64,000 bases of DNA from a virus, in the IMG/VR virus record IMGVR_UViG_3300022890_000014, positions 32,001-96,000 of that record. One strand, given 5' to 3'. The notes beneath the pieces are model-generated. The model did no database searches. It was not told the origin of the DNA and saw only the letters and a list, made by a program, of their open reading frames with translations. Shown here one piece after another: positions 2,019 through 61,703 of this stretch. A program made the position numbers and the translations under genes. Each line of letters opens with the position of its first letter. Within the stretch, counting starts at the first letter, position 1.

Positions 2019-2035
2019 TGCGTAAGCCTTACGCG
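2019..2035. repeat. 17-bp palindrome copy
   Basis: TGCGTAAGCCTTACGCG, intergenic. Confidence 0.95.
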
Positions 2036-2046
2036 AAAGTTCCATG

Positions 2047-2063
2047 TGCGTAAGGCTTACGCA
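2047..2063. repeat. 17-bp palindrome copy
   Basis: TGCGTAAGGCTTACGCA, intergenic, paired with 2019. Confidence 0.95.
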
Positions 2064-2069
2064 ATAGAT

Positions 2070-5000
2070 TTAGTGAGATTCCAAGGCATCTATGATAGAA
2101 CTATTGACGAAACCATCAACCCATCCACTAGGTAGGTTAATAAGTGGAGAAGAGTTTATAGCTTGAACTTCTGATGTCACCATAGCAAGTAGTTGTTCAT
2201 ATATACCATTGTTTAGCAGACTTATCAAGCCCTCTCTGTGAACATCCATATTTATAAACTCATCGAATCCTACAGAAACGCCAGATAGTAAAAGTCCCGC
2301 TCTTGTGCTGCTTGGATTTATTGAGAATCTACCAAATGGGTTATCCCCAGTTACAGATGATATAGTCATGTCTCCACCTGGAACAGAGGGATTACCTCTT
2401 GATACAAGAGAAGAGAACCCTCTAAAGTCTGAGACATCGTTCATTTTGAATCCAGTATTCAGACATGAACATCTTACAGATCCACCAGACACAGATTCGC
2501 ATATATTGATATGAATAGCAGCGTCAGCACCAATAGAGCCAATATCAATGTCATCAAGCCTAACCTTCTTACACATGTATGCCTCAAGGACTGTATATGT
2601 ATTCACAGAGATAGGAGTGCGATCAGTTACCTCAACATTGTTAAGTACTAATTCAGACAATTGATTAAAGCTCATAAGAGATATAGCTGCAACATTAATA
2701 TGGTTCTTTAGAACTCTAGCCTTCATCCCATCAATTCTTACACCAGCATTGTATACTGTTATGTCTGTTGCTGCTGAAGATTCAGGAATGATGTCTGCAA
2801 GATGAAGTATTCTTCCACCTTTACTTATGCGAGAAACGAATGTTTCGGTTCTAGTTGTTGGTCCAACTACCCTCACTGAACTACCGACCTTAATGCCCTT
2901 CATTTGACAATTTTCGCTTAGATAAACTTGCCTTGTTTTCTCATAGACATTGAATGTTCCATACACGCCAGTAGAGTAGCAAAGGTAGGATAATCCAGAA
3001 TCACTAGTCCTTTCGTCTACAAGTATAGCTCCAGGCATAAACTCTATGTTGGTTCCACCAGGAAAATTAAGTGATGAAGATACTATGTATAATCCAGGTC
3101 CAACAACAACTTTTCTATTGCTCTCTGGGAATACATTCTTGTCATACGAATTAAGAGACATAGACAGAGATCTACTTACTGCCTTCTGTATTCCTTCAAA
3201 CCCAGAGTATTCCCCAAAAGACTGATAACCATCACCAACATATATATCTTTAGAATCTGGTAGATTCTTCTGAGAAATCTCTACTAAGCCTGGAACTGAT
3301 ACTGAGTTTTCACTGGTTGCACTAGACGTATCACCTGGAGATGTCTCAAATAAGCGCACTTCACCGATACTCATAGCAAATGAATCGCTACCATCAGATG
3401 CTTCGTAAGGAATCAATAACTGTGCAGAGAAGTATACTTTTATGTATTCATCAGTTGTTGACGATACCATCTTAATGATAGTGTTTCCATTAACTCTGTA
3501 AACATCCCTAACTGCTCTTAGTATCCAGTTGGAATTATCTAAACTACTATATACTGTCATAACGGATAGTGGATCAATAGTGTCATCGAATCCATCAGAT
3601 TCAACATCATCTAGCAGCATTATGGCTGATACGTTTGGCTTAGTTGACATCATGCCAACAGACATGCCAGCAGCAGTGGCTACTGTTGTTGCTATTCTAG
3701 ATCCATCTCTCATTCCTATCGCGCTAGCAGAAACAGAAGATAGCACAGATGGTCCGGCAGGTGTTGCATCTGTCGCTATGTGAAGTCCTAATCCTGGGTA
3801 GTCTGGTATAGCTCCAGAAAGAACCTTTATCTCTGCTAAAAGAAACTCTTTGGATCCACTAAACACATCTGGACTAATACCATTCGGTGTTTCAGGCATG
3901 TTGCCTTCGAGTGATATTTCAAGATTAGAGAATACAGTGTCGTAAGCTCCACCATTGAATGCTGTAGCCTGAATAATAACTTCACCAGATGGATACACAT
4001 GTGTTCCAGATATTGCAGTGTATGAATCAGCCACACCAAGAGCAAATCTTGAGTTTGACATAGATTGTAATGACTTAGATAGCATGTTTGCGAACACGCT
4101 GGTTCCATTTGTTCCTAAGACAATTACTCTACCGTCCTGAAGAGCTATAACATCTGTCAAGTCTAGTACGTCTGTGACCTTGCCCTCTGTTGCTGCGATC
4201 CATCCTTCATTTATTGCAGCAATATCTGATACTTTGACTCCAAACACAGAGTACCAGTTATCATCTGCTGTATACACCTTGGCTGCTGTAAAAGCAAGTA
4301 TTTCATCATCCTCTGTTCTTACGCTAACTATCTTAGATGTCATAGAAACATTAGATAGAACACCTATGTTAGACTCTCCATACACAGTAGGATTTACTAG
4401 AGTAGTTGAATCGGACGCCTTACATGTAACATCCATCGCTCCACCACCCAGTGGTGTTCTGAAATAGAAATATCTTTCTGTCTCATACGTGCATTGAATG
4501 GAGCATCTTTGAGATGGAGTTGCATCTAAATTTGCTTCAGCTATGATAGATGAAACACCACCTGCTGCATGTCCGACAAATCGTACTGTTCTAACCAAGT
4601 CGGTAGCTATGTCGATAAACACTAGACTTACTTGCTGCGTAAGGCTTACGCAGATAGATAAGTCTCTGGAATTAGTATCTGAGATTCTTACAGGAGCGGT
4701 TATCTGCGTGTTTCCGAAAGCATCTAGCCTGCAATACCAAACTTTATTAACTCCAGATTCAGTCTCAATCCATGCAAAGTGGAATGTTCCATGTATATCT
4801 GTGGCTGAAACTAGCTCTTTGACTCCAGTATTTTGTGGAGCTATAGAAGAAGTATAGTCACCATGCTGTCCGTACTGAGAAGAGTTTGCGTAGAATCTTA
4901 TTCCTGCATTTGAAAATGGCGCTATGACATTTAGGTCTGCGAAAGCCTTCACAGTAACACCTAGATTATTAGAAACAGTACTGTTTATATCAATACCTGA

Positions 5001-6402: not shown

Positions 6403-6419
6403 TGCGTAAGGCTTACGCG
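6403..6419. repeat. 17-bp palindrome copy
   Basis: TGCGTAAGGCTTACGCG, intergenic. Confidence 0.95.
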
Positions 6420-7975: not shown

Positions 7976-7992
7976 TGCGTAAGGCTTACGCA
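7976..7992. repeat. 17-bp palindrome copy
   Basis: Perfect, intergenic. Confidence 0.95.
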
Positions 7993-8717: not shown

Positions 8718-8734
8718 TGCGTAAGGCTTACGCA
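8718..8734. repeat. 17-bp palindrome copy
   Basis: Perfect, intergenic. Confidence 0.95.
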
Positions 8735-8736
8735 GT

Positions 8737-11700
8737 CTAGAAAGTTATTGTTTCTAGCAATACCCTAAGCGAATCGTACACTTTTACCTCACCTGATTCA
8801 TATATGCTAATTGCTTCTTCATCTAGACTATACTCTGGTCTGAGCTTTGAGTAAAGAATTCCTTTTCCTGCTGTGATAGTGCTAGAAATTCCAATCGAAC
8901 TTGTAGACACGAAGGATGTGATTTCATACACACCTTGGCTATCTTCGTGGCTTATTTCAAATTCCAATCCAACAGCTAACAATCCTATGGAATCTTCTAC
9001 TTCAACCTCATGAGTGCCTATATATGCTGTTATCTTTGTGTTAATATTCAACTGAGGTATATTTAACTGCTTGCCTACGTCTGTTGCAGAGAATGGACCG
9101 TATGCAGTTGCAGCATAGAACGAGTTAGGGCTGACTGTAGATACCGAACCACCCTTATAAAATCTCCACGCACCGCCAACCCATATGTATGAGCCTACAT
9201 CACCAGCAGTAAATGGTGAGTTCTCTGTGTCATCCAATGTTAATACAGCAGATGTCTCCCCGTCTTTAGATGAGGGATAGGAATGGTTTGATACAACACT
9301 AGTGAAAGGATCGGCTGAAGATGGGAGTAGTGATGCCCACCATGAGATCGTACTAGTCAAATCCATTATAAAACTAGATACATAGCCGCCTTCATCAGTG
9401 ATGCTAAACTCATCTTCTTGGTCAACTATTATCTGCAATATGAAATCAGTATACTCAGGGCTAACATCTCTCAGGAATTGAGATATTTGGTTTATGTCAG
9501 GAAGATTATTAAATGCTTCTGATGATATTTGACACAAAAACAAGTGCCTTCTTAGAAGAGACTTAGCAAGCTCTCTGTTTGTAGCAGTTGTGTTTTCTGT
9601 GTAGTATTTAGCAAGTGCGGTCTCGCTCATGTTGTCTCTGATGAAATCTGGCTGACTTGTCATGTCAAACAATCTGACAGCAGAAACTATAGCTACATAA
9701 CTGATACTCGATTCATCATTCAAGTCTCCATTTAGAACTACATGAAAGTCCTTCTCAAACTGAGTGATGCTATATGTGCCAGCATTTACACCAACGGGTA
9801 TGTGTATTTTTCCACCAACTGCATTCTTGTCGAAAGGAGCACTATCTCTATCGAAGAACGATCTTCCTATTGTCGAACCAGAAGATGTATATTCAGACCT
9901 GAATCCAGATAGTATTCCAAACTTTTCGACTTTCTCACCAATAGATACATATGGATCTAGTCCATTTGGTAGCTGGTACTGCTCTATGTTTCCATCTGCA
10001 TCTGTAACAGCTACTACCCATCTGCTCCCTAGCTCTATTCTTCTTAAAGAAACTGAGGTGACAGTGCCCTCTGTAAAGGCAAACGGAAGACCCATGAGTA
10101 TATTGACGCCTCTTTCGATAAGGCTTGGCTTCGGTCCTGTCCAGTATGTGATCCACAGTGATAGCAGCGATAGGTAATAGACGGATGAATTCTCTTGATA
10201 GAAGTTTATAAGGCTACCAAACTGCTTGTATGGATCTTCTTTATTTATATATACTTCTGGTGCCCATAGATTGACTCTTGGGTTCTCTCTGAAGTATATA
10301 TATCCATCCTCTTCTAAAAAGAAACCTATGCCTTCTTCTAGGTAAGTTGGCTTGTATGTCATCTCTGCAATAAACTTACCACCAGCAGCTATCTTTGCTG
10401 ATGGAGGTATTACCGCAACTCCACTATCCATATCAACCGTATAATCAGTACCTTGCGTAAGGCTTACGCCTGAGTCAGTTACTAGTTCTAAAGTCAGCAA
10501 AGACTTGTGACCCAAGAATAGTTCATCGTAGTTAGTCAGTGATACGTAGTCGTAAGCTTCATCTGTTGCTTGCTCAACTGTCTCTTGTAGTACTGGTAAT
10601 TCTACTGTCTCAACACCGACCTTTACTCTGTATAGAACTTTGACAGCATACGATATTGTCATCTGTGAACAATCAGCTATCATTCCGAATGGAATTCTCT
10701 TACACATACCAGTAGTAAGATCGACAACTAGATCAGATGGCATAAGCCAAGTAAGAGATGTGTTTGATGTCGTAAGAGTTTTATTGAGTCTTACAGAATT
10801 GCTAGATACGAACTCAGTTATTGTGTACTGACCAGAATCAGTACCACTGGATACAAATATCTTTCTTCCAACGTCTTCTGCTACGAACGGAGTCTCAACA
10901 CTAACTTCTTCAAACAGATTGCTTGCAGCTACAGTCTTTCCGTTAAACCAATCACTGTAGTCGCCCTGAACAAATTCATACTCTAGGCCAACTGCATCAG
11001 TGAACGAAGCAGAATATAGATCAAGATAGTCTCCATCTGCGCTAACGCTTCTCACTCTGTATTTTGCTCCACCGACGTCAACATTTGTCCCAAGGTTAGA
11101 CCTAGTGAACTTACGTATCGATGAATACAATCTTGTCGGGAATGCTAACTTTGTTATTCCATCAGCAACACCACTGTTAACTGCTCTTACTCTTCCTCCT
11201 AATGGAAGTGCATCTACCTTCACAGACTCAATGTTTATAGCGCCTAAGTCAACTATCTTTTCACTATCAAGTATCACAGCCTTGGATCTTCTGGCATAAT
11301 CTTTGAATTTATACTTAGAAGATAGGTCGCTGTTAAGTTCTCCACCTATTGAATAAGTGAGACCTTTTGCAGAACCTAGGCTGGCTAAGTCAAGCTCAAC
11401 TGACTTAATACTATTTACCGCTGCTATGTTATAGAATCTTCCATCTATAGTCAGGTTTGAGTCAACATCTGTATTACTAGATCCATACCCATCTGTTACA
11501 GAATCAAGGAAAGGTCTTCTAGTGTTATCAACCATACTAGTAGGATCAGAAGAAGATACTTCACCAGTAGCTATATACTTTCTGTATCCAGATGTGACAG
11601 TAGCCCATGTTTCTTTTCTATATATGAGAGAGTCGAATACGTTCTGGTACGCATCTAGTTCATACAGTCTTTGCATCAGATTGCCTGCTGTATGAACATT

Positions 11701-12370: not shown

Positions 12371-12387
12371 TGCGTAAGCCTTACGCA
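12371..12387. repeat. 17-bp palindrome copy
   Basis: Perfect, abuts the baseplate J stop codon. Confidence 0.95.
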
Positions 12388-14218: not shown

Positions 14219-14235
14219 TGCGTAAGGCTTACGCA
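14219..14235. repeat. 17-bp palindrome copy (supplies stop codon)
   Basis: Perfect; GCG TAA ends the gp25-like gene. Confidence 0.95.
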
Positions 14236-14711: not shown

Positions 14712-16699
14712 ATGTTCATACCCACGCCTGAAGCTGGATTGCTAAGTAAACTTCTAATCATATGCTCTATATCTAATATTCTTTTTGTAAGGTTCTTTAC
14801 AGCCTGAACAGACCTGTTTGATATACTCACCTTACCCAAGAACCTTGTTCTCTCTTTTCTAGATAACTCTATTGATGTATCGTAGTACTTAGCTCTCTCT
14901 ACTTCATTGGCAGCATTAGCAGCAAGGTTTCTTACACATGCTGCTGCTAAACCAATGTAAGATGCTATCTCTGGTGTCGCACTAAGTACAGACGTTATAT
15001 CTCCTACGTTTAGATCATCAAACATCTTGTCGAATCCAGCTAAGTTTATCATCTTGAACAGAGACTCCATTCTTCCTGCAAACTCTGGCTCTGGACTGAA
15101 CTTTAATAGGTGGGAGTTTATATCAGCCTCGTATCCTTCTAAAGAAGAAATACTTATTTTAAAGCTTTTTAGTTCTGTATCTGCATCTGTTAGCAATCTG
15201 GTCATGTCTTCTGAACTCTTTGATCCTGGAAGTGCTAGGACTAACTTTATAGCTCTGCTTGCACTATTTATTCCAGCTACAAATCCAATGTCAGAACTTA
15301 TTCCACCAGAGATTAAATCTATAGTTGAAGCAGTGGTGTCAAGATCTCCCCATTTATAGTGACTGTCCTTGAGTGACTTTAATGATCTTTCATATGCAGT
15401 ATAGAATACACTACTGACAGGGCTTTCATTAGTTTTCTTTTCTTGATACATGTCTCTCGTAATAATGTTGAGTGTAGCCATCATGGAGGCTATATCACCC
15501 ATCCATTTTCCAACATCTATGTGTTCTATTGAGTTATCGCTTGGCCTAGTTGGAACTAGCAGTATTTCCTGGTAGGTAGCTAGCTTTACCACCAGTTTAT
15601 CTACTCTTGACTTAAGAGTTGTTAGTATTCTTTGGAAGAACTGAGATCTGTTAGTTTCTGCCGATAATGGTTGTTCCATGAATTTCTTCACGGCCTGATA
15701 GTTTATCAATGCCTGGGATACATTTATAGACTCCACTCCTATCAGTCGTATTAAATCAGTAACTTCTATCATCTTAAGATTCATCTTTGATAGAAGTATC
15801 TGAAGCGGATCTTTAACCTTCGGAACATTCTTTAATAGCAGAAAGGCTGCTTTTATTGGTTGACTCATTCCTATAGATAGCAACTCTTCAACTGCACTAT
15901 CACTAAAATCAAAACTATTAATGCCACTTGCAGCATTTATCTTATTAATAATGTCATCTTCTGGAATTTTGGACAAAATAGCTTCTGACAACTCATCATT
16001 ATTAGTTATAGCAAATCCACCCATTACCGCATCTAATGGAGATAGTGCATTCAGTGCTTTCTTTAGAGATGCCCTTGCATTGGTTACACTGTTCATATCT
16101 ATTTTTTTTCTGAATGCAGCAGCCCTTGCTGTGTCTATACTTAGTGCTGCATCCGTCAGGTTAGTTATGGCTGTGCTTATTGTTAGACTTATTCGTGGAG
16201 CAACAGGCCCATCTTTCTGTAGCTTTCTGCCTGTCTCTATCATAGACTCTATACCTAGTGATAGTTTTGATATTAGTTCTTTTCTAGCAGCTACAGCAGA
16301 ATAGTAGGCTTTCTTTGCATTAGATGCAAACATAAGTGGGCTTTTGTCAGTTAGTTGTATAACTAGCTGGATCATACTGAATGATATATCGGTAAAGTTT
16401 TTTATCTTATCTACGGTTTCTCTTGTGCCAGGAAACGTACTAGATATGCTGTCTAGTATTTCTACTACAGCACCTCTTATTAATTGTTGTGTGAACTCGC
16501 TTCCTATTCCTTCAGATGCAGCCTTAGCTAACTTTGATGCATTCCCTATGATGTCATCAGTGACGGCTTCTTTTAACGCATCTATAGCAGAAGATGGATC
16601 TAAGCCCCTAACAGTTCTGGTTATTGAACTACTTAGTCGCAAAATCTCTCTAGTTGCGTATACTTCTAATCCTGGGCATGATATTGTTTTTGATGGCAT
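14708..16699 (-). CDS. Hypothetical alpha-helical protein, probably virion
   Basis: 663-aa ORF overlapping the gp25-like start (ATGA). Confidence 0.6.
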   Translation of the reverse strand: MPSKTISCPGLEVYATREILRLSSSITRTVRGLDPSSAIDALKEAVTDDIIGNASKLAKAASEGIGSEFTQQLIRGAVVEILDSISSTFPGTRETVDKIKNFTDISFSMIQLVIQLTDKSPLMFASNAKKAYYSAVAARKELISKLSLGIESMIETGRKLQKDGPVAPRISLTISTAITNLTDAALSIDTARAAAFRKKIDMNSVTNARASLKKALNALSPLDAVMGGFAITNNDELSEAILSKIPEDDIINKINAASGINSFDFSDSAVEELLSIGMSQPIKAAFLLLKNVPKVKDPLQILLSKMNLKMIEVTDLIRLIGVESINVSQALINYQAVKKFMEQPLSAETNRSQFFQRILTTLKSRVDKLVVKLATYQEILLVPTRPSDNSIEHIDVGKWMGDIASMMATLNIITRDMYQEKKTNESPVSSVFYTAYERSLKSLKDSHYKWGDLDTTASTIDLISGGISSDIGFVAGINSASRAIKLVLALPGSKSSEDMTRLLTDADTELKSFKISISSLEGYEADINSHLLKFSPEPEFAGRMESLFKMINLAGFDKMFDDLNVGDITSVLSATPEIASYIGLAAACVRNLAANAANEVERAKYYDTSIELSRKERTRFLGKVSISNRSVQAVKNLTKRILDIEHMIRSLLSNPASGVGMNI

Positions 16700-16715
16700 G
16701 CGTAAGCCTTACGTG
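16699..16715. repeat. 17-bp palindrome copy
   Basis: TGCGTAAGCCTTACGTG, overlaps the start codon at 16699. Confidence 0.9.
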
Positions 16716-16786: not shown

Positions 16787-17671
16787 TTAGTATATCTTCA
16801 TTCTATTTGCGCATCTTATGTTTAGTATGGATTTATGATTTGGATTAACACCTGGCCTTGGGTGTCTCTCATCTTCTTCAGGGGGAACACCGAGCATTTC
16901 GTTGTAAAACATAGATTCATTATGTAAAGAAGGAAGTTTACCAGATGCATGCGCATCTATTGATAACTTGTAGTGAGGTTTTGGATACGGATCTATATAA
17001 GAAATATCCTCCCATGCTTTCCAGCACAAAAGGTCTTTATCATTATCAGCACCTTTTATAAACAGAGACTCCTCTCTTTTGCCAAGTCTCCACCAATCAT
17101 TAATAAAGAATTCTTTTACAGGATCTTTCTTTCTTAATGATTTAGCCAACATTTCTTTTACTTCGTCGCCAGTGTATCCCCAAGGAACACCTATGCCGAA
17201 CTTGTTGCCTATTGATATAGTGTCTATAAGTGGCGAGCCTTTCCATGCCTGCATGCCCATAGACTTAGTTTCAGTTGAAGTTTTAAATCTAAGAACCTGA
17301 ACCATTAACTCTCTGTGGGATTCATTTAGTTTTTCACTACTAACTAGACCGAGACTATGCATTGACACCATGCTTGCGTAGTTAAGTGTGGTAGTGGTTA
17401 AGTTTTGCATCCTTGCAATGTCTGCATCTGAATGATTAGTCTTGCAAATCTTATCTAGCCACACACTACTGGAGTTGCGCTCACCACCCTCGAAATATTC
17501 AAACTCGCTTCCGTTAATCATTTCTTTTTTCTTAGAATTTTCCACTTTGCTACCTATGAAGTTAGACATAGTTTCTTGTTCTCTAACTACCTGGCTTTCA
17601 TATTTCTCTCGGTTTTCAGGATTAAAGAAGTATGTTGTGCTTGCGTAAGGCTTACGCATTCCATCAGACAT
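16787..17671 (-). CDS. Hypothetical protein
   Basis: 294-aa ORF with AGGAG SD; palindrome copy in codons 5-10. Confidence 0.6.
   Translation of the reverse strand: MSDGMRKPYASTTYFFNPENREKYESQVVREQETMSNFIGSKVENSKKKEMINGSEFEYFEGGERNSSSVWLDKICKTNHSDADIARMQNLTTTTLNYASMVSMHSLGLVSSEKLNESHRELMVQVLRFKTSTETKSMGMQAWKGSPLIDTISIGNKFGIGVPWGYTGDEVKEMLAKSLRKKDPVKEFFINDWWRLGKREESLFIKGADNDKDLLCWKAWEDISYIDPYPKPHYKLSIDAHASGKLPSLHNESMFYNEMLGVPPEEDERHPRPGVNPNHKSILNIRCANRMKIY
17642..17658. repeat. 17-bp palindrome copy
   Basis: Perfect, in the 5' end of CDS 16787..17671. Confidence 0.95.
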
Positions 17672-17768: not shown

Positions 17769-17854
17769 TGGTAAGGGCAGGATTTGAACCTGCATCTCCA
17801 TGCACTGGGACTTTGCAAGTACCGTATGGCGCATAACCATTATGCTACCCTTCC
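17769..17854 (-). tRNA. Atypical tRNA-like gene (GCA/Cys anticodon) with elongated anticodon arm
   Basis: GGAAGGG acceptor (one mismatch), TA, D-arm GCAT-AATGGTT-ATGC, T-arm GCAGG-TTCAAAT-CCTGC; anticodon arm about 32 nt with loop TT-GCA-AA. Confidence 0.55.
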
Positions 17855-19345: not shown

Positions 19346-19362
19346 TGCGTAAGGCTTACGCA
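19346..19362. repeat. 17-bp palindrome copy
   Basis: Perfect, just upstream of the tdk SD. Confidence 0.95.
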
Positions 19363-19816: not shown

Positions 19817-20855
19817 AGTACATAACTTTTCCTGCATCCAGTATGTCTTTTATCTCTGATGCAATAAACCTGTGCTCTTTTCTCACCTCTGCTTCACTTA
19901 TGCCTAGTCTATTAGATATTTCCTTCACTCCATCGAGAGTTTCTTTTCCCTCGAAGTCATCAAAAGTATGTTCCATAACTAGTTGCTGCTTCGGTGTTGC
20001 ACTGTGATACGTAGTAAAAAGAGCTTCAACTGCTGGGTCTGTGTTGCTTGCACCTATCGGACCTAGGTTGTCATCAAGCACCAAGTCTTGTCTTAGCTCC
20101 TGATCTATGGCTTTTAGGTCAGATATTTTCCATCCAAGTTCTTGACGCAGTTCTTGAATTGTGGGGTCTCGATTCTTTTTATCTTTTAGTAGTTCGTATG
20201 CGTTCTGATATACGCCTACTTTAGCTGCCCTTGGTTCAGGTATACTTCCCACGTTCTGATATTTATACCCATACCTGTGAATCTTAGACAGTTGATGCCA
20301 AACATGAGTGTTAAGTGCCGCACCCTTGTTTGGGTTATATGTGTTTATTCCGTGCCTAAGCAGTCTCATTCCTTCTGCTTCTACAGCAGATTTTGGGAGA
20401 GGAGAGTTCTTGACCCAAGGACGAACCCTGCTTCGTACAAGAGGAGTGAAGGAATGCATAAGCTTCCTAAGTGCTCTCTTGTCACCAGTCTTGTTGTACG
20501 ACTTCCAGAGTTCCATCTCTTCATCTTTAGACATACTTGCAGCAGTTTTAATTAGGGAAGGATAGATGCTGTCTTCAATAATGCACTTACCGTTAGCTTC
20601 CTTAGTAAACTCGCATAAAGCCCAATCCTTAGAGGAGTCACCAAGAAACCGTGTGTTCTCATCACACACAACTCTTCCACCATCGAATAGCTCCGAGGCA
20701 AGTTTCATTGTGTGCGTAAGGCTTACGCGGTCACTGCTCCACACCACAAGAGCGCCCTTGCTTGTATCTTCAGGTAGATACATTGCAGACTTCTCTATGC
20801 CGTCCTCTTCTGTCACAAGAAGACCAGCAGTGTGTTTATTCATATATGTATTCAT
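19815..20855 (-). CDS. Phage RNA polymerase sigma factor (sigma70 family, FliA/SigF-like) with N-terminal extension
   Basis: Region 2 'GDKRALRKLMHSFTPLVRSRV...EGMRLLRHGINTYNPNKGAALNTHV', region 3 'RDPTIQELRQELG', region 4 HTH 'KEISNRLGISEAEVR'. Confidence 0.85.
   Translation of the reverse strand: MNTYMNKHTAGLLVTEEDGIEKSAMYLPEDTSKGALVVWSSDRVSLTHTMKLASELFDGGRVVCDENTRFLGDSSKDWALCEFTKEANGKCIIEDSIYPSLIKTAASMSKDEEMELWKSYNKTGDKRALRKLMHSFTPLVRSRVRPWVKNSPLPKSAVEAEGMRLLRHGINTYNPNKGAALNTHVWHQLSKIHRYGYKYQNVGSIPEPRAAKVGVYQNAYELLKDKKNRDPTIQELRQELGWKISDLKAIDQELRQDLVLDDNLGPIGASNTDPAVEALFTTYHSATPKQQLVMEHTFDDFEGKETLDGVKEISNRLGISEAEVRKEHRFIASEIKDILDAGKVMY
20713..20729. repeat. 17-bp palindrome copy (intragenic)
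   Basis: TGCGTAAGGCTTACGCG in the sigma N-terminal extension (RVSLTH). Confidence 0.95.
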
Positions 20856-23787: not shown

Positions 23788-23804
23788 TGCGTAAGCCTTA
23801 CGCA
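23788..23804. repeat. 17-bp palindrome copy
   Basis: Perfect, intergenic; degenerate second copy at about 23808-23823. Confidence 0.95.
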
Positions 23805-24955: not shown

Positions 24956-24972
24956 TGCGTAAGGCTTACGCA
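24956..24972. repeat. 17-bp palindrome copy
   Basis: Perfect, intergenic. Confidence 0.95.
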
Positions 24973-28588: not shown

Positions 28589-28605
28589 TGCGTAAGCCTT
28601 ACGCA
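28589..28605. repeat. 17-bp palindrome copy (supplies stop codon)
   Basis: Perfect. Confidence 0.95.
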
Positions 28606-29913: not shown

Positions 29914-30411
29914 ATGGCTGCAAATTACAAGGAATTACTATCCAGTGTGTACACAGTCTGGGAAGGAATTGACGAACTAACTGGAATGTTCTTTAGTGGA
30001 GTATCTGGCCTTAGCGAGTGCCATGAAGATAATGATGAGCTAAAAAAAGTATGGAGACTCATATTTGGGCATGGTGATTATAATGGGCTGGTGAATGAGT
30101 ACGAAGATGCCTACATGTCGTGGCCTAAGCCGGTAAACAAGGGCACTAGAATAGACCGTGTGCGCAACTACAACCTTAGATTAGATCAGTCCTACGAGCG
30201 ACTACAGGATATGATCGAGACTATGCACTACCTATCAAATACAGTGGTTCTGGATATAGTTGGAGACTATGACTGGCACGAAAGCATTAACAGTGCAATT
30301 ACTATCCTTGTTGACTCGCTACATGAGAGGTTGTGCAGACCTGATAACGAAACTATCTTCCGTGTCAAGAGAAAATACAAGAAACTAATGAATGAATTGG
30401 GTGTCGCGTAA
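29914..30411 (+). CDS. Hypothetical protein
   Basis: 165-aa ORF with SD, downstream of the promoter motif at 29859. Confidence 0.65.
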   Translation: MAANYKELLSSVYTVWEGIDELTGMFFSGVSGLSECHEDNDELKKVWRLIFGHGDYNGLVNEYEDAYMSWPKPVNKGTRIDRVRNYNLRLDQSYERLQDMIETMHYLSNTVVLDIVGDYDWHESINSAITILVDSLHERLCRPDNETIFRVKRKYKKLMNELGVA

Positions 30412-30421
30412 GGCTTACGCA
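30405..30421. repeat. 17-bp palindrome copy (supplies stop codon)
   Basis: CGCGTAAGGCTTACGCA. Confidence 0.95.
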
Positions 30422-32684: not shown

Positions 32685-32701
32685 TGCGTAAGCCTTACGC
32701 A
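32685..32701. repeat. 17-bp palindrome copy
   Basis: Perfect, between stop codon and SD. Confidence 0.95.
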
Positions 32702-34578: not shown

Positions 34579-34595
34579 TGCGTAAGCCTTACGCA
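34579..34595. repeat. 17-bp palindrome copy
   Basis: Perfect, between stop codon and SD. Confidence 0.95.
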
Positions 34596-36818: not shown

Positions 36819-36835
36819 TGCGTAAGCCTTACGCA
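36819..36835. repeat. 17-bp palindrome copy (supplies stop codon)
   Basis: Perfect, ends the SNF2 gene. Confidence 0.95.
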
Positions 36836-38677: not shown

Positions 38678-38694
38678 CGCGTAAGCCTTACGCA
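38678..38694. repeat. 17-bp palindrome copy
   Basis: CGCGTAAGCCTTACGCA, divergent intergenic region. Confidence 0.95.
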
Positions 38695-39189: not shown

Positions 39190-39529
39190 GGACACAACTA
39201 GAGATTGGGTTGAACATATATTGAGAAACACTGGAAGGATGTGGACTAAATTCCTGTATCTCCCAGATGATAACGATGTTGCATACCTAAGGTGTATAGG
39301 CTACACATCTGAGAATAGAGGAACAGAAGCGGGGGATGTGCCCAAATCAACTCAGGAGTTTGCAGAGTTTGACAACACTCATAGAAAGACTCAGTATATA
39401 GACAGTATGCAGATGTTCGAGGAAGAAGACTTTCCAGAATACATGCCTTCTTTATTCAAGGTATACTTAGGTGAGTTTCCGTCAAAAGAAGAAGCTCTAG
39501 AATACTACAAGAATACAGATCTTGCGTAA
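39164..39529 (+). CDS. Hypothetical protein
   Basis: GAGGTG SD; stop codon lies in a palindrome copy. Confidence 0.6.
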   Translation: MKKYYIIYEDTTRDWVEHILRNTGRMWTKFLYLPDDNDVAYLRCIGYTSENRGTEAGDVPKSTQEFAEFDNTHRKTQYIDSMQMFEEEDFPEYMPSLFKVYLGEFPSKEEALEYYKNTDLA

Positions 39530-39539
39530 GGCTTACGCG
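39523..39539. repeat. 17-bp palindrome copy (supplies stop codon)
   Basis: TGCGTAAGGCTTACGCG. Confidence 0.95.
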
Positions 39540-41552: not shown

Positions 41553-41569
41553 TGCGTAAGGCTTACTCA
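41553..41569. repeat. 17-bp palindrome copy
   Basis: TGCGTAAGGCTTACTCA. Confidence 0.9.
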
Positions 41570-41653: not shown

Positions 41654-42509
41654 CTATGAATGATGTGTTATCCTAGGGGTACATAGAGCATTACTTTATG
41701 CAGATGAACATTGTATCGAACGCGCAACAGAATGCTCGCTGTGTTGCTCTCTGCTATCCTCAGAGCAATCCTAGTGGATATAATCACCTAGGGAATTGAC
41801 CAGCACGGCTCAGGATTATAATGAGGAAGCTATGAGCTAGACAATTGGTAAGCCTTACTCATGAGCCGTTTCGATTCTCACCATTACTATTTGACCAGAA
41901 GCACTCTGATAGCTCCTGACAGCAAATTCTGCATAGGCTTACATACTCATTTGATACGATGTTCATCTGGACACCTAGAATCCACTCTGTGGGCACCATA
42001 TGAAGGATTCCTATATACTCATCAATTCCTACCAAACTAGTTCCCCCTAAAACAGACTTCAGACATATATACAGCCCCGCAGGTAGGTCATGAGAACCAA
42101 ATCGGAGAAAGTGATAAAACAGTTTATTTGAGAAAACTAATACAAGGGGTAAAACTAATACAGGGGTTGGAGGGACGAGGAAGAAAAAAGAATAGTATAT
42201 ATGAATATATATTTAAGTTTATATATTTAAATATATATAGTATTATTACTGGGTGGGCTGGCTGGGGTTAGAGATTTGCGCTTAGAATGCCTTACGGATT
42301 GAGTACTTAGAATTTTTTATTGACTATTTTCTTGATACCCATTGACAAGCAAAACGCATATATACGAGCTTACGCAACTTGGAAAAACATAAGTCCTCTA
42401 TCTATTATAATTGCTCTTTTGCGCTTTTTGTGGAAACAAACTATTAATGAGTGACAAAAAACGTCACTGTGGAATCACACAAGTATATGCATTTTGTGTT
42501 TTCTATAAG

Positions 42510-42526: not shown

Positions 42527-42553
42527 TAGAATATTTGCATACATTTATTCAAG

Positions 42554-42570
42554 TGCGTAAGCCTTACATG
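42554..42570. repeat. 17-bp palindrome copy (degenerate right arm)
   Basis: TGCGTAAGCCTTACATG. Confidence 0.8.
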
Positions 42571-42639: not shown

Positions 42640-45600
42640 ATGAACAGAACTACGGTAATTCAGAGGTACTCAGAAGCTATAGCTCCGTACTACAAGCCGC
42701 ATGGTCTTGTTGAGGTATGGGCTACAGGAAGTAAGAAAAAATGGACAAGGATAAGAATAGAGAACATCTCAGCGTGGACTGAAGCTGTAGGGAATACAGA
42801 CGTACATTGTACTCTACAGCAGTTCAAGATTCATCCAACACCATTCGAGGGAAAAGACAAGCATAGTGAGCCATACATAGCTCCGATATTCTTTGAGTTC
42901 GATGCATCAGAAAAGAGAGGGACAACACTAGAAGACTCTCGTAAGGATGCAATGAAGCTATGCACGTTCATTATAAACTCTGTCAATCCAGCCAAAGGAG
43001 TGTTGCGTATCTGGTACTCGGGGAGTCGAGGCTTCCACATTACAATAGATCCTCGTATGTTTGGCATACTACCAGACCCAGAACTACACATGTTCTACAA
43101 GGTTATTGCATTCCATTACGCAGAATTACTTAACTTGAAAACTCTAGACGAACAGGTGTATTCTGTACGAAGAACATTTAGGTTGCCAGATTCTAAGCGA
43201 AGTACTCAATGGGAGAGGGGTAAAGGAGACCTTGTAGACCAGCACAAGGTCGAGATAGAGTTCAATGAACTAGACATGATGTCTGTCGATGAGATACGAG
43301 AATTAGGAAGTGAGCCAAGAGGAGCACTATATAGTGACGAAGAGCTTGCTAGTATAGAGTTCAACCCAGACAGCACAAAATGGCTAAGGCATGCATACCA
43401 AGAGTTTCAGAATGAAAAAAGACTGAAAAACACGTCAAATAAGACTAAGGTTGTCATCAAAGCTGCTGATGACCAATCATTCCCAATATGTATAAAAGCT
43501 ATACTTGAATATGAGTTCGCAACAGACAAGCGCAATAAAGCCTGTTTGTCGTTGCTTTGTTTCCTAAATGATAGTGGTCGGTCGTATGATGACTCATGGG
43601 CTATCATTGAGGAATGGACAAGAGGTATTCCCTGGGACACTAAAAAAGAGGAAGAAAGAGTAGCAAACGCAAGAGCAATCATGCGTCGTGTGTTTACTGA
43701 AGACTCTATATACAACTTCGAGTGTCAATTTATCAGGTCGTGTGCTGGTGTTAACAACTCAAATAACGAGGTGTCAATACCATGTCTATACAACAACTGT
43801 AAGTTTGTCGAGAGTTCTGAGACAAGTTCAAGTGATGCTCCTAGAATTGAGCTTCAAGAATTCATCAGACCTGAGTACAATCGGACTCCGTGTAAGGCTT
43901 ACGCACACCTAATTGGCTTCATGGATAGAGCATTTTCTGTTCCAGCACAAGTAAGACTTAGTTGTCCTCATATTCTCAGTGATGGGAATACTCATCTTGT
44001 TCTTTGCGATACATGTGCAATGCCTAGTACTTCTGAGCAAATAAGCAGCGAAGATACACACGGGCAGGCATTGTCTAGAACAATGGAGATAAACCTCTTA
44101 CGTAATGGACTAGCCTTAATTGACGTGACATCTAAGATGAAGAAAGGGATGATACGTAGCTTGGCTGGTATTCATCCAAAGTGCCAGTCGTGGAGGATGG
44201 AAGAGGTTCAGAGTGCCACTATTAGACAGGTGATGCTTAAACCTCCATCAATTGATGAGTCGTCGTCTTCAGTATGGGATGCAGAAAGCTTTGAGGCTAA
44301 AAAGCAAGTAGGATTCCTAGCTACTAGAGAAGAAGACTCTATCTTGTCAAAAGAGAATACCGAAGTAGAGATTGTTGCTATGCCAATGGCATCACCTAAA
44401 GACCAGAGTATTCATCTTGCTATTTCTGGCATGACTAGTAGTGAGTCTGACTTAGATAAGTTTACAGTCACAGACGAGCTAAAGGAGCAACTATACTCTA
44501 TACATGCTGTAAAAGAAGGAGATACGGTAGAAGGTAAAGTCTTTGATAGAATACAGAAGATTGCATCACATATAGGTATTAGAGGAAGAGATGAGTTGAT
44601 ACTAGCAATGGACTTGGTGTTTCACTCAACTATGGCAGTAAAGCTAAGTGAGAAGGACATCGAAGAAAGAGGCTGGATGCAGTTGCTAGTCGTTGGAGAT
44701 CCAGGGCAAGGCAAGAGTAGTATCAGCAAAAGCCTCATGCGACATTACAATCTTGGACGCTCGATAGAATGTGGAGGCGCATCACGCACAGGCATCGTAT
44801 ATAGTATTGACATTACAAAGTACGGAAAAATGCTTGTTTGGGGTGTACTACCACAAGAGGATAGGCGACTGGTTGTAATAGATGAGTTCCACCAGTTAGA
44901 CGCAGAAGACCTTGAGATGATGACAGGTATGAGATCGTCAGGAATAGTAAAGGTCAATCGTATAGTTAGTGGAACAACACTATGTAGAACCAGAATGATA
45001 TTCCTTGCGAACCCTCCTGGTGATGGCAAGCTAGATGGGTACAGCTTCGGAATCAAGGCTATTAATGCGGTTATGACTAAGCAGCAAGATATACGCAGAC
45101 TTGACCTAGCTTCTATATGTAGGTCTGGTGATGTTAGCTTGGAAGATCTTAATAAGGTCTCTACAGATGGAGACTACGGAGAATATGAACCAAACTCTTG
45201 CAAGAACCTAATCTTATGGGCATGGACAAGGAAGACAGAACATATCAAATGGACTGAGCAGGCTGTTACTACTCTGATGAAGCAGTCTATTGATATAGCT
45301 AGATGGCTTGAGTGCGACATATCACTTGCAGAAGGTAGCGACATGAGATTCAGGCTTGCTAGGATAGCTCAGTCTGTTGCAGCCATGTGCTACTCATCTG
45401 ATTCCGAAGGCGAGAACCTTTGGATAAAACCAGAACATGTTGAGTTCGCAGCAGATGTATTTGTGCAATTGTCTACATCTGTTGGCAAAATGAACCTTCA
45501 TGTATATGCAAAGTCGTGGCAAGCAAGAAACACACTAACCGACAAGCAAAGAGAGGACTTAGGCAGAACACTAACTGGTAATACATGGTTCTTGGTGTTC

Positions 45601-45964: not shown

Positions 45965-45974
45965 AATGCGTAAG

Positions 45975-46005
45975 AAGTATCATGTAAGTATCATGTAAGT
46001 ATTAC
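45975..46005. repeat. Tandem 11-mer AAGTATCATGT x2 plus a partial copy
   Basis: Seen directly, between a palindrome half-site (45967) and a full copy (46007). Confidence 0.8.
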
Positions 46006-46006
46006 T

Positions 46007-46023
46007 TACGTAAGGCTTACGCA
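46007..46023. repeat. 17-bp palindrome copy
   Basis: TACGTAAGGCTTACGCA. Confidence 0.9.
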
Positions 46024-47309: not shown

Positions 47310-48209
47310 ATGAGTACAGGATCTCCAGAATACTTTCAGGTTCCAGTAGAAGGAGAGGTGGTTGATAGGTTAGCTGGCATAGCTTCTGATCTAAACCTTC
47401 CTGATGTAGCCTCTATTGTTAACGGAATATTGAAGGAAAAAATCTTTCAGATCACTGGTGAGAATCTAGCTAAACCAGTGGTTCAAAAACCAAGCGTAAG
47501 CCTTACGCAACCACAAAATCCCTCTGTCGATGTTATGAATCTAGCAGATGAGCTTATTGCTGCTTCATCGAATGATGGGATGCTCAGTAACTCTCTCGGT
47601 CCATCACTGAATAGTGAAGCCACTCTAAACGATCTTCCTAGTTCACTACAGAAGCAAGCGGCTACTTACGTTGCACCTGCTCCTACTCCAAATGACAACC
47701 AGGTAAATACTCAGGATAGCGAAATAAAGAACATGTTGATGTCTCTATCAAATGAAATCAGGACAATTGGAAGTAGAGTAGAGTCGATTGAAGGAGCACA
47801 GAAACCTGTCCCTTTCGTCCAAGCGGGGAAAAAATCTTCTAGACCTGAAGATTCTCCGCATTGGAGAGCCGATGGTGTTCCCCCAGGTTTGTATCCAAGA
47901 TGCGCAGAGACATTTGTGATGGACCCAACGGTTAAACCTGCTACAAGCGATAGATGCACTCCGTATACTCAGGTAAACAATGCCGAAGGTAGATCTATTC
48001 ATAGATTCCTTGGCTGGAGAAGCCCACCAAAGAAGACACAAGGAAGACAGGCTGCACCTGTTGTTAACCATAAGCTTCCACCTTCCATAAGGGAGGCCCC
48101 TGTAGCATGGCATCACTCTTCGATGTTTCCAGATCATAAATCTACCCAGGTAGAGTATCCCACTGATGACAAGAAGGGTAAACGAAGAATTTTCATTAGT
48201 CCTGGTTGA
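47310..48209 (+). CDS. Hypothetical protein (largely low-complexity, P/Q/S-rich)
   Basis: ACGGAG SD; 299 aa. Confidence 0.65.
   Translation: MSTGSPEYFQVPVEGEVVDRLAGIASDLNLPDVASIVNGILKEKIFQITGENLAKPVVQKPSVSLTQPQNPSVDVMNLADELIAASSNDGMLSNSLGPSLNSEATLNDLPSSLQKQAATYVAPAPTPNDNQVNTQDSEIKNMLMSLSNEIRTIGSRVESIEGAQKPVPFVQAGKKSSRPEDSPHWRADGVPPGLYPRCAETFVMDPTVKPATSDRCTPYTQVNNAEGRSIHRFLGWRSPPKKTQGRQAAPVVNHKLPPSIREAPVAWHHSSMFPDHKSTQVEYPTDDKKGKRRIFISPG
47493..47509. repeat. 17-bp palindrome copy (intragenic)
   Basis: AGCGTAAGCCTTACGCA, encodes SVSLTQ. Confidence 0.95.
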
Positions 48210-49703: not shown

Positions 49704-49954
49704 CAAGAACAGGAAAATTGGTACAAGATACTCGCAAGAAAAGAATTTTGAAAGTAGAGTGTGCCAATTCGACTGTTATCATTATTGGCGCTAATGATAA
49801 CATCGCAAACATCCTAGAAGGTGGAGCCTTGGTTGACGGTAAAGCGCCTATGCAATTGCGTTGCATACATGAAATAGATTGGGTTGAAGGAGAAATCAAC
49901 CTAATCAGTAAGAAGAAACTGTTTCCTCCAGTTCTAAACGAAGAGGTTGCGTAA
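49700..49954 (+). CDS. Small hypothetical protein
   Basis: ATGA overlap; stop codon inside a palindrome copy. Confidence 0.55.
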   Translation: MTRTGKLVQDTRKKRILKVECANSTVIIIGANDNIANILEGGALVDGKAPMQLRCIHEIDWVEGEINLISKKKLFPPVLNEEVA

Positions 49955-49964
49955 GCCTTACGCA
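49948..49964. repeat. 17-bp palindrome copy (stop codon; directly upstream of the ParB-like gene)
   Basis: Perfect. Confidence 0.95.
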
Positions 49965-52659: not shown

Positions 52660-52676
52660 TGCGTAAGCCTTACGCA
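52660..52676. repeat. 17-bp palindrome copy
   Basis: Perfect, intergenic. Confidence 0.95.
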
Positions 52677-55357: not shown

Positions 55358-55374
55358 TGCGTAAGCCTTACGCA
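55358..55374. repeat. 17-bp palindrome copy
   Basis: Perfect, intergenic. Confidence 0.95.
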
Positions 55375-57239: not shown

Positions 57240-57437
57240 ATGCAACGAACACTGGATGCCACTGGAATGTTTAGTTTGGTCTCTAGCACATCTGACAAAC
57301 TGGACAAGCTAATGGAGAAGCATCTTCCAATTAACAGCCAAACAAGACGGAAGATAGTACTCTCGCCAAAGAGTGTTCCTTCTGGCAGCAAAAACCTTTC
57401 GCGTAAGGCTTACGCAGGAAAAGAAAACGGAGAATGA
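57240..57437 (+). CDS. Small hypothetical protein
   Basis: GGAG SD; fills the gap between neighbours. Confidence 0.4.
   Translation: MQRTLDATGMFSLVSSTSDKLDKLMEKHLPINSQTRRKIVLSPKSVPSGSKNLSRKAYAGKENGE
57400..57416. repeat. 17-bp palindrome copy
   Basis: CGCGTAAGGCTTACGCA. Confidence 0.95.
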
Positions 57438-60170: not shown

Positions 60171-60187
60171 TGCGTAAGTCTTACGCA
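60171..60187. repeat. 17-bp palindrome copy (central T)
   Basis: TGCGTAAGTCTTACGCA. Confidence 0.95.
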
Positions 60188-60197: not shown

Positions 60198-60704
60198 ATG
60201 GCTAAGATTACTAATGAGAAAATGTTCATGGATTGGTTCTCAAAGAACTTAATCAAAGTATTATCACCAGATTCTAAAGTAAAGAGGTTGTCGGACAGGT
60301 CTTCTTCTGGTTATCCAGACCTAATAATTATTACACCTAGCAATGGTGTTGTTGCTGTTGAACTTAAGTTTATAAAACATGAGCCTTCACCTGGGAAAAG
60401 CCCATTCTCTCATAAACTATCTTCTCTACAGGAGAGGTTTCTGGATGACTGGGGTAAATCATGTGGTGGTAAATCGTTTATGGTTACTGGGGTTCTTGCA
60501 AGAGGAAGCAGTGAAGATAGAATAATAGTTACGAGTCACAATAGATTGGGTGAGCTTAATCTACGAGGCTGTTGCTCCATGAACGAGCTTGGGTTAGTAT
60601 CTGATGTATTCTTTATTGACATTGGTGCTGATATTGCAGCATTAAATGATCCTTTCTATGAAGAAGAATGCTGCAACCTGAGAGCACTACTACTAGGAAT
60701 GTAA
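60198..60704 (+). CDS. VRR-NUC/Holliday junction resolvase-like PD-(D/E)XK nuclease
   Basis: E..F, GYPDL, VELK, LSSLQERFL. Confidence 0.75.
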   Translation: MAKITNEKMFMDWFSKNLIKVLSPDSKVKRLSDRSSSGYPDLIIITPSNGVVAVELKFIKHEPSPGKSPFSHKLSSLQERFLDDWGKSCGGKSFMVTGVLARGSSEDRIIVTSHNRLGELNLRGCCSMNELGLVSDVFFIDIGADIAALNDPFYEEECCNLRALLLGM

Positions 60705-60705
60705 A

Positions 60706-61392
60706 ATGGTCAAGGTAAATAAAAAAAGATCTGGGATAGTCAAGCCTGAGAACCTTAGTCCCGCTGAATTTATGAAGTGGAGACATAAGGTTGTAGCAAA
60801 AAGAGGGCAGAGTATATTCAATGATATGGGCATACCTCTACCTGATGAGTTTGAGGAAGTGTCAGAGTATCAACAAGGAGTGTTCAACGATAGTGTTGAG
60901 CAGGCGATCTCCGACAAGTCTAGAGAGATGAGAAGTCAAGATGAGGGAGCACTAGCCAGGAAGGAGTTCGATTTCGTGTCGGAGGACGACTGGTCAACAT
61001 TACAATCGGGTTCTAAGTTTGAAGGCAATCAAGTTAGGTTTAAAGAGTTCAGGGGTAGGAACTACGACATGGAGTATGTTATATCGCCCCCAGATGTAGT
61101 ATGGCATATATTCTATCCATCCAACACTATGATGAATAAAGAAGTCATGATGGAAATACACTCTATACTAAAGCCATTTGTGCCTAGGCAGTGGAGAGTA
61201 TCGTTGTCGTTTGAGAGCAAAGTATCTCCATACTCATCTGCTGTAGAAGGCAGGGGTGATGACGTAATAGAGTGCTGTTCTTACTCAGTGAAGTTCCATG
61301 AGTTAAACCAAGAGCCAGGTGCAGCACATATAATGACTCAGATTCTCAATGAGTTCTTGCAGAAGTTTGTCATGATGGTTCATGCAATATAA
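60706..61392 (+). CDS. Hypothetical protein
   Basis: 228 aa, coupled. Confidence 0.65.
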   Translation: MVKVNKKRSGIVKPENLSPAEFMKWRHKVVAKRGQSIFNDMGIPLPDEFEEVSEYQQGVFNDSVEQAISDKSREMRSQDEGALARKEFDFVSEDDWSTLQSGSKFEGNQVRFKEFRGRNYDMEYVISPPDVVWHIFYPSNTMMNKEVMMEIHSILKPFVPRQWRVSLSFESKVSPYSSAVEGRGDDVIECCSYSVKFHELNQEPGAAHIMTQILNEFLQKFVMMVHAI

Positions 61393-61693
61393 TAGGAGAG
61401 TAATAGTGACACCGAATATGGAAATAGATGTAGTCACATCATTAACCGCCAGATACTTAAGGGAAGAAGCGGAGGGTAAAAAGCTATGTGGATACGGTTC
61501 TATGCTTAATGGAATGGACACTGTGGTTCGCATAGAGCTTGAGGATGGATACTTGCACAACCCGTGTATAGTATCTGGAATCGAGGAAGTTCCTGGCGGT
61601 TACACATATACAATGGTTCATGCGTTCCGTCCGATAGTATATAGAAATGTTCAGCCAGGACAGTTCAGGATAATGAAAACGTTTGATGCGTAA
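61382..61693 (+). CDS. Hypothetical protein
   Basis: 103 aa; stop codon in a palindrome copy. Confidence 0.55.
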   Translation: MQYNRRVIVTPNMEIDVVTSLTARYLREEAEGKKLCGYGSMLNGMDTVVRIELEDGYLHNPCIVSGIEEVPGGYTYTMVHAFRPIVYRNVQPGQFRIMKTFDA

Positions 61694-61703
61694 GCCTTAC
61701 GCA
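61687..61703. repeat. 17-bp palindrome copy (supplies stop codon)
   Basis: Perfect. Confidence 0.95.

Follow-up and report, generated by a model that had tools for sequence, protein, structure and literature searches.

Genome-wide dyad arrays have been reported in phages since 2015 and are still without an explanation. In Cluster O mycobacteriophages (Corndog and relatives) a 17-bp dyad is present in more than 30 copies over the ~70-kb genome; many copies lie in short intergenic gaps and about one third in genes, and they are unoriented and mostly off promoters (Cresawn et al. 2015, PMC4351075). A dimeric DNA-binding protein was predicted by the authors, who also mentioned a protein with a ParB-like domain, and the function was left unexplained (PMC4351075). 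Here we describe a dispersed palindrome, TGCGTAAG-S-CTTACGCA (S being G or C), in a window of 64,000 nucleotides, which is the whole stretch analysed and spans bases 32001-96000 of one viral contig of 150,744 bp (IMG/VR record IMGVR_UViG_3300022890_000014). Its copies form a lattice that is real, strongly selected and clade-wide, and they probably act as DNA sites. This clade-wide array is regarded as a variant of the described but unexplained kind of phage dyad array.

As in Cluster O, a dyad of about 17 bp occurs in tens of copies genome-wide, both between and inside genes, unoriented and mostly independent of promoters. The two arrays differ in sequence and architecture (TGTTCGG-NNN-CCGAACA, 7-3-7, against 8-1-8 here) and belong to unrelated phages and hosts. 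The Cluster O copies crowd toward one end of the genome, whereas the present ones are evenly tiled. The Cluster O paper contains no test of evenness and describes neither co-varying sister motifs nor a sister without the lattice.

The ParB/Noc/KorB family reads palindromes of 13-16 bp. The OB operator is an odd-centred palindrome with a G/C centre (TTTAGC-S-GCTAAA), and plasmid RK2 has 12 OB sites on 60 kb, which serve promoters together with KorA and IncC (ParA). On this IncP plasmid, the KorB clamp slides up to ~1.5 kb from the operator to promoters (McLean et al. 2025, PMC11790492). The present array resembles the KorB-OB system in that one odd-centred palindrome (87 copies, 8-1-8, G/C centre) is dispersed over the replicon with no single centromere, and in that a ParB-fold candidate reader stands where KorB is a ParB-fold reader. 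It differs in having 87 sites on 151 kb, evenly tiled and mostly promoter-less, in an apparently lytic phage; no ParA (PF13614) was found in the genome, and the candidate has no recognisable KorA-type partner. Box III, part of the CTPase motif set, is not conserved in the candidate reader, which is a further difference from KorB.

Cluster A stoperators, bound by L5 gp71, occupy short intergenic gaps genome-wide at a similar density and have one reader, and sites and reader co-evolve between subclusters. They are asymmetric 13-14-mers oriented with transcription and serve as binding sites for a temperate-phage immunity repressor, whereas the present sites are perfect dyads without orientation and the phage was not found to be temperate: no tyrosine integrase was found in the genome, an absence that is not final given that the record is estimated to be 82% complete. 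The ParB-parS and Noc-NBS (Noc-binding site) systems resemble the present array in recognising palindromes (14-16 bp) and share a fold with its candidate reader. Noc has dozens of dispersed sites, about one NBS per 60 kb and not evenly tiled, while parS sites cluster near the origin; both ParB and Noc systems need ParA or the membrane. Among systems whose mechanism has been worked out, KorB-OB, Noc-NBS and the stoperators come nearest to the present array. To our knowledge, ParB-family cytidine triphosphate (CTP) clamps are described in partition, nucleoid occlusion and plasmid gene silencing and not as tiling the chromosome of a lytic phage, and a limited literature search found no paper on a ParB-type lattice in such a phage.

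Copies, symmetry and spacing of the palindrome

The pattern searched was TGCGTAAG-N-CTTACGCA, and the chance level was estimated from 100 dinucleotide shuffles. In the window, 32 copies of TGCGTAAG-S-CTTACGCA were found at up to two mismatches, against 0.01 expected, and two further degenerate copies, at 41845 and 42554, have three. The first-pass annotation had counted 33 copies by eye; 32 of its positions were recovered at up to two mismatches and 42554 requires the third. The whole genome holds 87 copies at up to three mismatches, of which 55 are perfect and 21, 6 and 5 have one, two and three mismatches, respectively; this is an average density of about one palindrome per 1.7 kb.

The central base, which had been described as free, was found to be G or C at every copy in the window except 60171 (T). 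In relation to transcription, sense-C was tallied by hand 31 times and sense-G 22 times. This polarity is weak and not significant, and it was dropped as a sign of orientation. Positions 8 and 10 (G and C) are mirror-related although they are unable to pair in a hairpin.

Near-identical copies of the phage DNA are present in several ENA metagenome assemblies, and strain variants carry diverged patches around two sites, in which the arms are untouched and one centre flips from C to G. No near-identical DNA was found in a cultured-phage collection. The exact 17-mer gave only three single matches in IMG/VR, which were taken as chance. Across 185,579 species genomes it was found in 68 stretches with one site each, and about 70 are expected by chance (hand estimate); being close to chance, these matches indicate that none of the sampled bacterial genomes carries the 17-mer as a repeat, and they give no clue to the host.

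The spacing was tested after merging doublets, against either uniform placement or a random choice among ~175 gene junctions, with 20,000 simulations. The coefficient of variation (CV) of the gaps was 0.42-0.45, compared with 0.98 for uniform placement and 1.07 for the gene-junction null, and 0 of the 20,000 simulations were as even under either null. The largest gap was 3.7-4.5 kb (~9-11 kb expected), and gaps below 500 bp numbered 1-3 (14-20 expected). The regular spacing proposed in the first-pass annotation is thus borne out, as is the presence of copies regardless of expression module, since they occur in the structural and replication modules and in both transcription directions.

Placement relative to genes and signals

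Gene placement was taken from simple open reading frame (ORF) calls, by which 94% of the genome is coding. About 64-72 copies fall in the non-coding remainder of ~6%. Where genes lie in tandem, the palindrome fills the gap between the upstream stop codon and the next ribosome-binding site. Its TAA (bases 5-7) is itself the upstream stop codon in 16 of the 54 tandem-junction copies, some others adjoin the stop, and about 33 of the 54 end no more than 22 nt from the next ATG, which lies 9-22 nt from the palindrome. In long intergenic gaps two positions are equally common, one next to the following start and the other next to the upstream stop, with 46-106 nt left before that start. The ribosome-binding site is the only conserved sequence in the flanks.

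Three unrelated ORFs located right after palindromes (starts L004:13336, 14872 and 19591, minus strand) have a common N-terminal leader, M-S-(V/I)-Y-(E/Q)-G-I-x-x-G-M.

Some 15 copies clearly lie within genes and in frame, where they read CV(R/S)LT or RK(A/P)YA; the third frame gives a stop. By hand tally, ten of the in-gene copies sit in the ten genes longer than 2.5 kb, and the density of sites in genes of this length is ~3 times higher. Three are located in the 7.6-kb fused RNA polymerase gene, and several other long genes have a site mid-gene, at relative positions of 0.3-0.6. In the MCM-primase orthologs of this phage and of two related lineages (L018 and L019), one internal site each was found in non-homologous columns of the alignment (427, 237 and 635) with no indel. 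The internal primase-helicase sites thus arose by substitution, independently in the three lineages.

Such copies bear on the idea that the palindrome is a selfish mobile repeat of the repetitive extragenic palindrome (REP) or miniature inverted-repeat transposable element (MITE) type. An element of this sort would fit the uniformity of the copies within each genome, their differences from one genome to another and their patchy distribution among relatives. However, the in-gene copies replace aligned residues without an indel, neither conserved flanks nor target duplications were seen, no Y1/RAYT transposase (Y1_Tnp) was found, and insertion predicts neither strong under-dispersion nor the filling of long genes. 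Because indels and a Y1 transposase are lacking, this origin is as good as ruled out and is given an extremely small probability. Since sites were written independently into the same long gene, long gaps are absent and short gaps are few, coverage itself is selected, each site serving a domain of ~2 kb on either side.

Transcription signals were considered as well. The flanks lack a T-run consensus and few copies have a T-run, for which reason intrinsic terminators were ruled out; a terminator scan of 40-60 kb picked up just 3 of 14 palindromes, and the clear hairpin plus T-run terminators differ in sequence. Promoters were ruled out because the flanks are not conserved, with no consensus -35/-10 boxes, and because internal promoters cannot serve the 7.6-kb gene. 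A promoter-like box, GGTATAAG-N4-RTAGW, is present in 24 copies in the genome against ~5 by chance (hand estimate), mostly intergenic. Fifteen of the 24 lie within ~70 nt of a palindrome, on either side and at variable distance, and most palindromes have no such box nearby. In relatives whose palindromes differ, GGTATAAG or GGTATAAT was also observed beside some palindromes.

Half-sites are not enriched genome-wide. Direct arrays of left half-sites that run into full sites were found at 45967-46023 of the window and at 97189, 113940, 115582, 118415 and 139107 of the genome.

Related phages with and without the lattice

Homologs of the large terminase form a clade at 53-58% identity. For the ParB-like protein encoded at 49986-51620, eight full-length homologs were found (24-32% identity, with identical synteny throughout) by an exhaustive HMMER search; a word-based search returned only the query itself. 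The site word is CGTAAG-S-CTTACG in L018, GCATAAG-S-CTTATGC in L013 and L023, tcATAAG-S-CTTATga in L022, TGCATGAG-S-CTCATGCA in L014 and L019, and GGTGTAAG-S-CTTACACC in L024, where only two copies were seen. The arm variants in the relatives are thus GCATAAG, GCATGAG, CGTAAG, tcATAAG and GTGTAAG, and each change is mirrored in the opposite arm; T5, A7, G8 and the G/C centre are constant across the lineages. The lattice density in these phages is 0.35-0.97 per kb over 36-52% GC, and the gap CV is 0.26 in L013, 0.28 in L014 and 0.38 in L019 (each P ≤ 0.0011). Analogous dispersed dyads, which the first-pass annotation had proposed looking for in related phages, therefore exist, and those phages also carry the ParB clade.

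One sister lineage, from a crustacean-associated metagenome, is lattice-free. Its large terminase is 54-56% identical and its replication module has the same synteny, and no repeated palindrome was found in the 36 kb sampled. A tblastn search over the syntenic loci revealed no gene that is common to the lattice lineages and clearly absent from this sister. Farther away, no lattice was found in the first 50 kb of Vibrio phage D181 (RNA polymerase ~30% identity) or in five IMG/VR contigs with a large terminase of ~30% identity. A search for the MCM protein in IMG/VR gave nothing useful, nor did one with the ParB alignment, which was too divergent for seeding, and a search of JGI metagenomes with the MCM alignment gave distant matches only.

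In the lattice-free sister, a single parS-like palindrome, TTGTTTCATGAAACAA (L017:4751-4766), was observed just past the terminase gene. Its replication module contains genes for an IS605-type TnpB (OrfB_IS605 / Cas12f-like) and an HNH protein (L020:14739-15839), both of which are absent from this phage.

The comparison is relevant to a speculative role in replication, in which a single-strand DNA hairpin on the lagging-strand template would recruit the archaeo-eukaryotic-type primase (AEP) and set Okazaki fragments of 1-3.7 kb for either fork direction. The spacing matches the sizes of bacterial Okazaki fragments, the phage has a fused AEP-primase/MCM helicase, and half-site arrays lie just downstream of its gene. 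MCM-type helicases travel 3'-5' along the leading-strand template, so that priming on the lagging strand would receive no help from them. However, the sister has the same replication genes without the lattice, so the lattice is not a core replication requirement, and the DNA hairpin is weak in the low-GC relatives. We know of no precedent, and this role is considered very improbable.

The clade as a whole offers a natural experiment. It comprises five mirror-paired versions of the site at similar density, with evenness alike in most, together with independent in-gene writing of sites and a sister that has the candidate reader and no lattice.

The candidate reader and what the sites may do

In the explanation preferred here, the 17-mers would be duplex binding or loading sites for one phage-encoded, sequence-specific protein of two-fold symmetry. 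Selection would hold a site within ~2 kb of any point on the chromosome. The sites would preferentially use the scarce non-coding slots, where the palindrome can provide the TAA stop and adjoin the next ribosome-binding site, and genes too long for this would acquire a site within their coding sequence through substitution. The most likely reader would be the ParB/Noc/KorB-fold protein encoded at 49986-51620. That the array consists of duplex sites for one dimeric phage protein and that the ParB-like protein reads them is a tentative proposal, held with slightly less than even confidence.

The same placement would also suit an RNA-level element. This would be an intercistronic hairpin with a 7-bp stem and a GSC loop, recognised by a nuclease or RNA-binding protein of the phage, and it would control the start of translation or the processing or stability of the mRNA. 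Most copies follow a stop codon and precede a Shine-Dalgarno sequence starting 0-5 nt past the palindrome. The RNA hairpin is predicted at -6.7 kcal/mol in this phage, and the palindrome would fold in transcripts of either strand. In addition, the outer stem co-varies between lineages while the central, apical bases (T5, A7, G8, S9) are invariant, as in loop-recognised hairpins. Duplex DNA is nevertheless favoured because positions 8 and 10 take part in the symmetry without being able to pair in a hairpin, because the G/C centre is a single state in duplex and shows no strand preference, and because the predicted hairpin reaches just -2.0 to -2.2 kcal/mol in two low-GC lineages. Direct half-site arrays are typical of protein sites. 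Even coverage and mid-gene, in-frame copies, written independently in three lineages, have no rationale at the RNA level. The hairpin is also at odds with the copies in long gaps that stand beside the upstream stop, with the scarcity of T-runs and the different sequence of true terminators, and with the lack of any Rfam family match at the palindromes. It is judged quite unlikely.

Regarding the duplex reading and its reader, the 544-aa protein was modelled with AlphaFold2 at a mean predicted local distance difference test (pLDDT) score of 82, with a coiled-coil insert and a long helical tail. Among the Foldseek matches listed, all 23 with E ≤ 0.001 were Noc, ParB, Spo0J or KorB chains; the template modelling score normalised by target was 0.42-0.63 and the matching region covered the first ~290 residues. 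A profile built from nine homologs matched Spo0J at E 4.9e-13, spanning GxxRxxA (DGHRRFTA) and the helix-turn-helix (HTH), and PHROG 6218 'ParB-like' was matched at E 5.6e-11. The ParB-like identity assigned in the first-pass annotation is therefore supported by both structure and clade profile, which point to a ParB/Noc/KorB fold with HTH. Nucleotide-binding box II (GxxRxxA, two arginines) is present, DGHRR being invariant in 9 of 9 homologs and aligning to GERRxRA of Spo0J. The conserved 84-aa ORF upstream of the gene gave no Pfam match. A site is found immediately ahead of the ParB-like gene in 5 of the 6 lattice lineages, which is suggestive at most as a link to the reader.

The two comparative checks that had been proposed for this pairing gave mixed results. 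All six lattice lineages carry the ParB-like gene, and so does the one lattice-free lineage. As for co-variation of the HTH with the site, a Ser at recognition-helix position three accompanies a G at position 4 of the site (3/3 versus 0/3), which is only suggestive with six lineages.

Together with the placement and the invariant centre described for the hairpin, several findings count against the proposal. The Pfam ParB_N score is 16.3 bits, below the curated cut-off of 26.3, with no match at E 0.001. Box III (ENLQR), which is needed for CTP hydrolysis, is not conserved and reads QMILGMQQE here and 'tlGlsqE' in the clade profile. The sub-threshold ParB_N score and the altered box III make CTP gating uncertain. 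The Ser/G4 split gives a Fisher value of ~0.1, calculated by hand. Finally, the lattice-free sister retains the ParB-like ortholog (P0128) and its neighbours; the ParB-like protein thus does not suffice to produce a lattice, and it is possibly not the reader.

The last finding leaves room for another dimeric reader on the same DNA lattice, which would act as a symmetric, stoperator-like global roadblock or repressor stopping RNA polymerase in both directions within a few kb. One variant would be the shut-off of host polymerase while phage genes are transcribed by the phage-encoded fused beta-beta' polymerase with its sigma; the phage does encode an RNA polymerase and a sigma-like gene. One site per 1.7 kb, the preference for junctions and the copies in long genes fit the stopping of transcription everywhere, and the promoter-like boxes near sites (15 of 24) agree with it. 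In contrast, no candidate repressor was found. Nothing points to lysogeny, since neither integrase nor ParA was found; these sites lack the asymmetry and the orientation of stoperators; and most sites have no promoter nearby. A roadblock of this kind is considered rather unlikely.

Returning to the ParB-like protein as reader, by analogy with KorB a nucleotide-gated clamp would load at each site, slide 1-2 kb and so cover or mark the whole chromosome. The reach of KorB, up to 1.5 kb (PMC11790492), fits a half-gap of at most 1.9 kb. The protein would bind the 17-mer and slide from it, and its purpose might be global transcription control or the marking or shielding of phage DNA; the coating, compacting or shielding role suggested in the first-pass annotation is likewise an inference. 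The coverage reading, if true, would mean that one protein lets the virus address its whole chromosome. One form of it, in which ParB-type clamps loaded at ~87 sites have overlapping sliding ranges that tile all the DNA of a lytic phage and so mark it as self, is a minority possibility. If it were right, phage and host DNA would be distinguished, and phage RNA polymerase, nucleases and helicases could act on or spare marked DNA. Alternatively, host defences could be kept off. Site and reader would then co-evolve as a lineage-specific code.

Features of the window and of the genome

Table 1 Palindrome copies and associated features of the window, in order; distances are counted from the palindrome
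Feature	Position	Strand	Context
Copy, 1 mismatch	2019..2035		Intergenic, ATG of 1159-aa ORF 18 nt on; tandem with 2047
Perfect copy	2047..2063		Stop of 1440-aa ORF (2070-6392, minus) 6 nt away
Perfect copy	4636..4652		In frame within 1440-aa ORF, relative position 0.40
Copy, 1 mismatch	6403..6419		10 nt ahead of 1440-aa ORF ATG
Perfect copy	7976..7992		Intergenic; 505-aa ORF ATG 20 nt further
Perfect copy	8718..8734		2 nt past 1206-aa ORF stop; next start at 89 nt
Copy, 1 mismatch	10454..10470		In frame within 1206-aa ORF, relative position 0.52
Perfect copy	12371..12387		Adjoins 605-aa ORF stop; 1206-aa ORF ATG at 13 nt
Perfect copy	14219..14235		TAA = stop of 160-aa ORF; 605-aa ORF ATG at 13 nt
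Copy, 2 mismatches	16699..16715		5' edge of 663-aa ORF
Perfect copy	17642..17658		5' end of ORF 16787-17671; ambiguous start codon, possibly intergenic
Perfect copy	19346..19362		186-aa ORF ATG at 12 nt
Copy, 1 mismatch	20713..20729		In frame close to N-terminus of sigma-like ORF (19815-20855, minus)
Perfect copy	23788..23804		973-aa ORF ATG at 9 nt; degenerate second copy after
Perfect copy	24956..24972		3 nt past 1200-aa ORF stop; 367-aa ORF ATG at 13 nt
Perfect copy	28589..28605		TAA = stop of 112-aa ORF; 1200-aa ORF ATG at 10 nt
Copy, 1 mismatch	30405..30421		TAA = stop of ORF 29914-30411; clamp-like ORF ATG (30433) at 11 nt
Perfect copy	32685..32701		Adjoins stop of ORF 32439-32684; next ATG at 15 nt
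Perfect copy	34579..34595		Adjoins 241-aa ORF stop; next start at 10 nt
Perfect copy	36819..36835		TAA = stop of SNF2 ORF (36829-38649, minus); GGTATAAG box 4 nt downstream, minus strand
Copy, 1 mismatch	38678..38694		Divergent junction, GGTATAAG box on each side; ATG 38722 at 27 nt
Copy, 1 mismatch	39523..39539		TAA = stop of ORF 39164-39529; ATG 39551 at 11 nt
Copy, 1 mismatch	41553..41569		Edge of 1.1-kb non-coding divergent region; minus-strand ATG at 13 nt
Degenerate copy, 3 mismatches	41845..41861		Within non-coding divergent region
Degenerate copy, 3 mismatches	42554..42570		GGTATAAG box at 1 nt; primase-helicase ATG at 69 nt
Copy, 2 mismatches	43889..43905		In frame, codon 417 of MCM primase-helicase; no indel versus orthologs, made by substitution
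Direct array of left half-sites TGCGTAAG, CATGTAAG, CATGTAAG	45967..46006	+	Runs into full site 46007
Copy, 1 mismatch	46007..46023		ATG 46041 at 17 nt
Copy, 1 mismatch	47493..47509		In frame within 299-aa ORF (47310-48209)
Perfect copy	49948..49964		TAA = stop of 84-aa ORF; ParB-like gene ATG at 21 nt
Candidate reader, 544 aa	49986..51620	+	ParB/Noc/KorB-fold N-domain and HTH; long K/E/A-rich helical tail
Perfect copy	52660..52676		PD-(D/E)XK nuclease ATG at 26 nt; centre C to G sole change in strain variant
Perfect copy	55358..55374		4 nt past stop; HD-domain ORF ATG at 37 nt; arms intact in diverged patch of variant
Copy, 1 mismatch	57400..57416		ATG 57439 at 22 nt
Copy, perfect arms, sole T centre in window	60171..60187		ATG 60198 at 10 nt
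Perfect copy	61687..61703		TAA = stop of ORF 61382-61693; ATG 61715 at 11 nt
Promoter-like boxes GGTATAAG-N4-RTAGW, examples	36807(-), 38653(-), 38663(+), 41615(-), 42572(+), 48226(+), 52608(+), 60138(+)		

The primase-helicase gene is preceded by a divergent region of ~1.1 kb without coding sequence (41570-42640), which is near the minimum of the cumulative GC skew and contains two degenerate palindromes and two promoter-like boxes. It may be an origin or an early control region. Both ends of the contig (L004:1-100 and L008:14645-14744) are located in the same short tandem repeat of GCAGACCTTCG-type units. The contig may represent a nearly complete, circularly permuted genome that was interrupted in this repeat, although the CheckV estimate is 82% complete.

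The fused RNA polymerase is encoded by a 2520-aa ORF (L004:2278-9840, minus strand), which combines beta and beta' domains and a LAGLIDADG intein. Its nearest relatives are those of Vibrio phages D181, D148 and D69 and Salmonella phage Arash, at ~30% identity. A second intein was observed in a 1154-aa ORF of the head module (L007:4156-7620, minus strand). A tRNA match of 47 bits (gathering score 29) was obtained with Rfam at 17769-17854 of the window, minus strand, and was not reported by ARAGORN. Its length of 86 nt may reflect a long arm or an intron.

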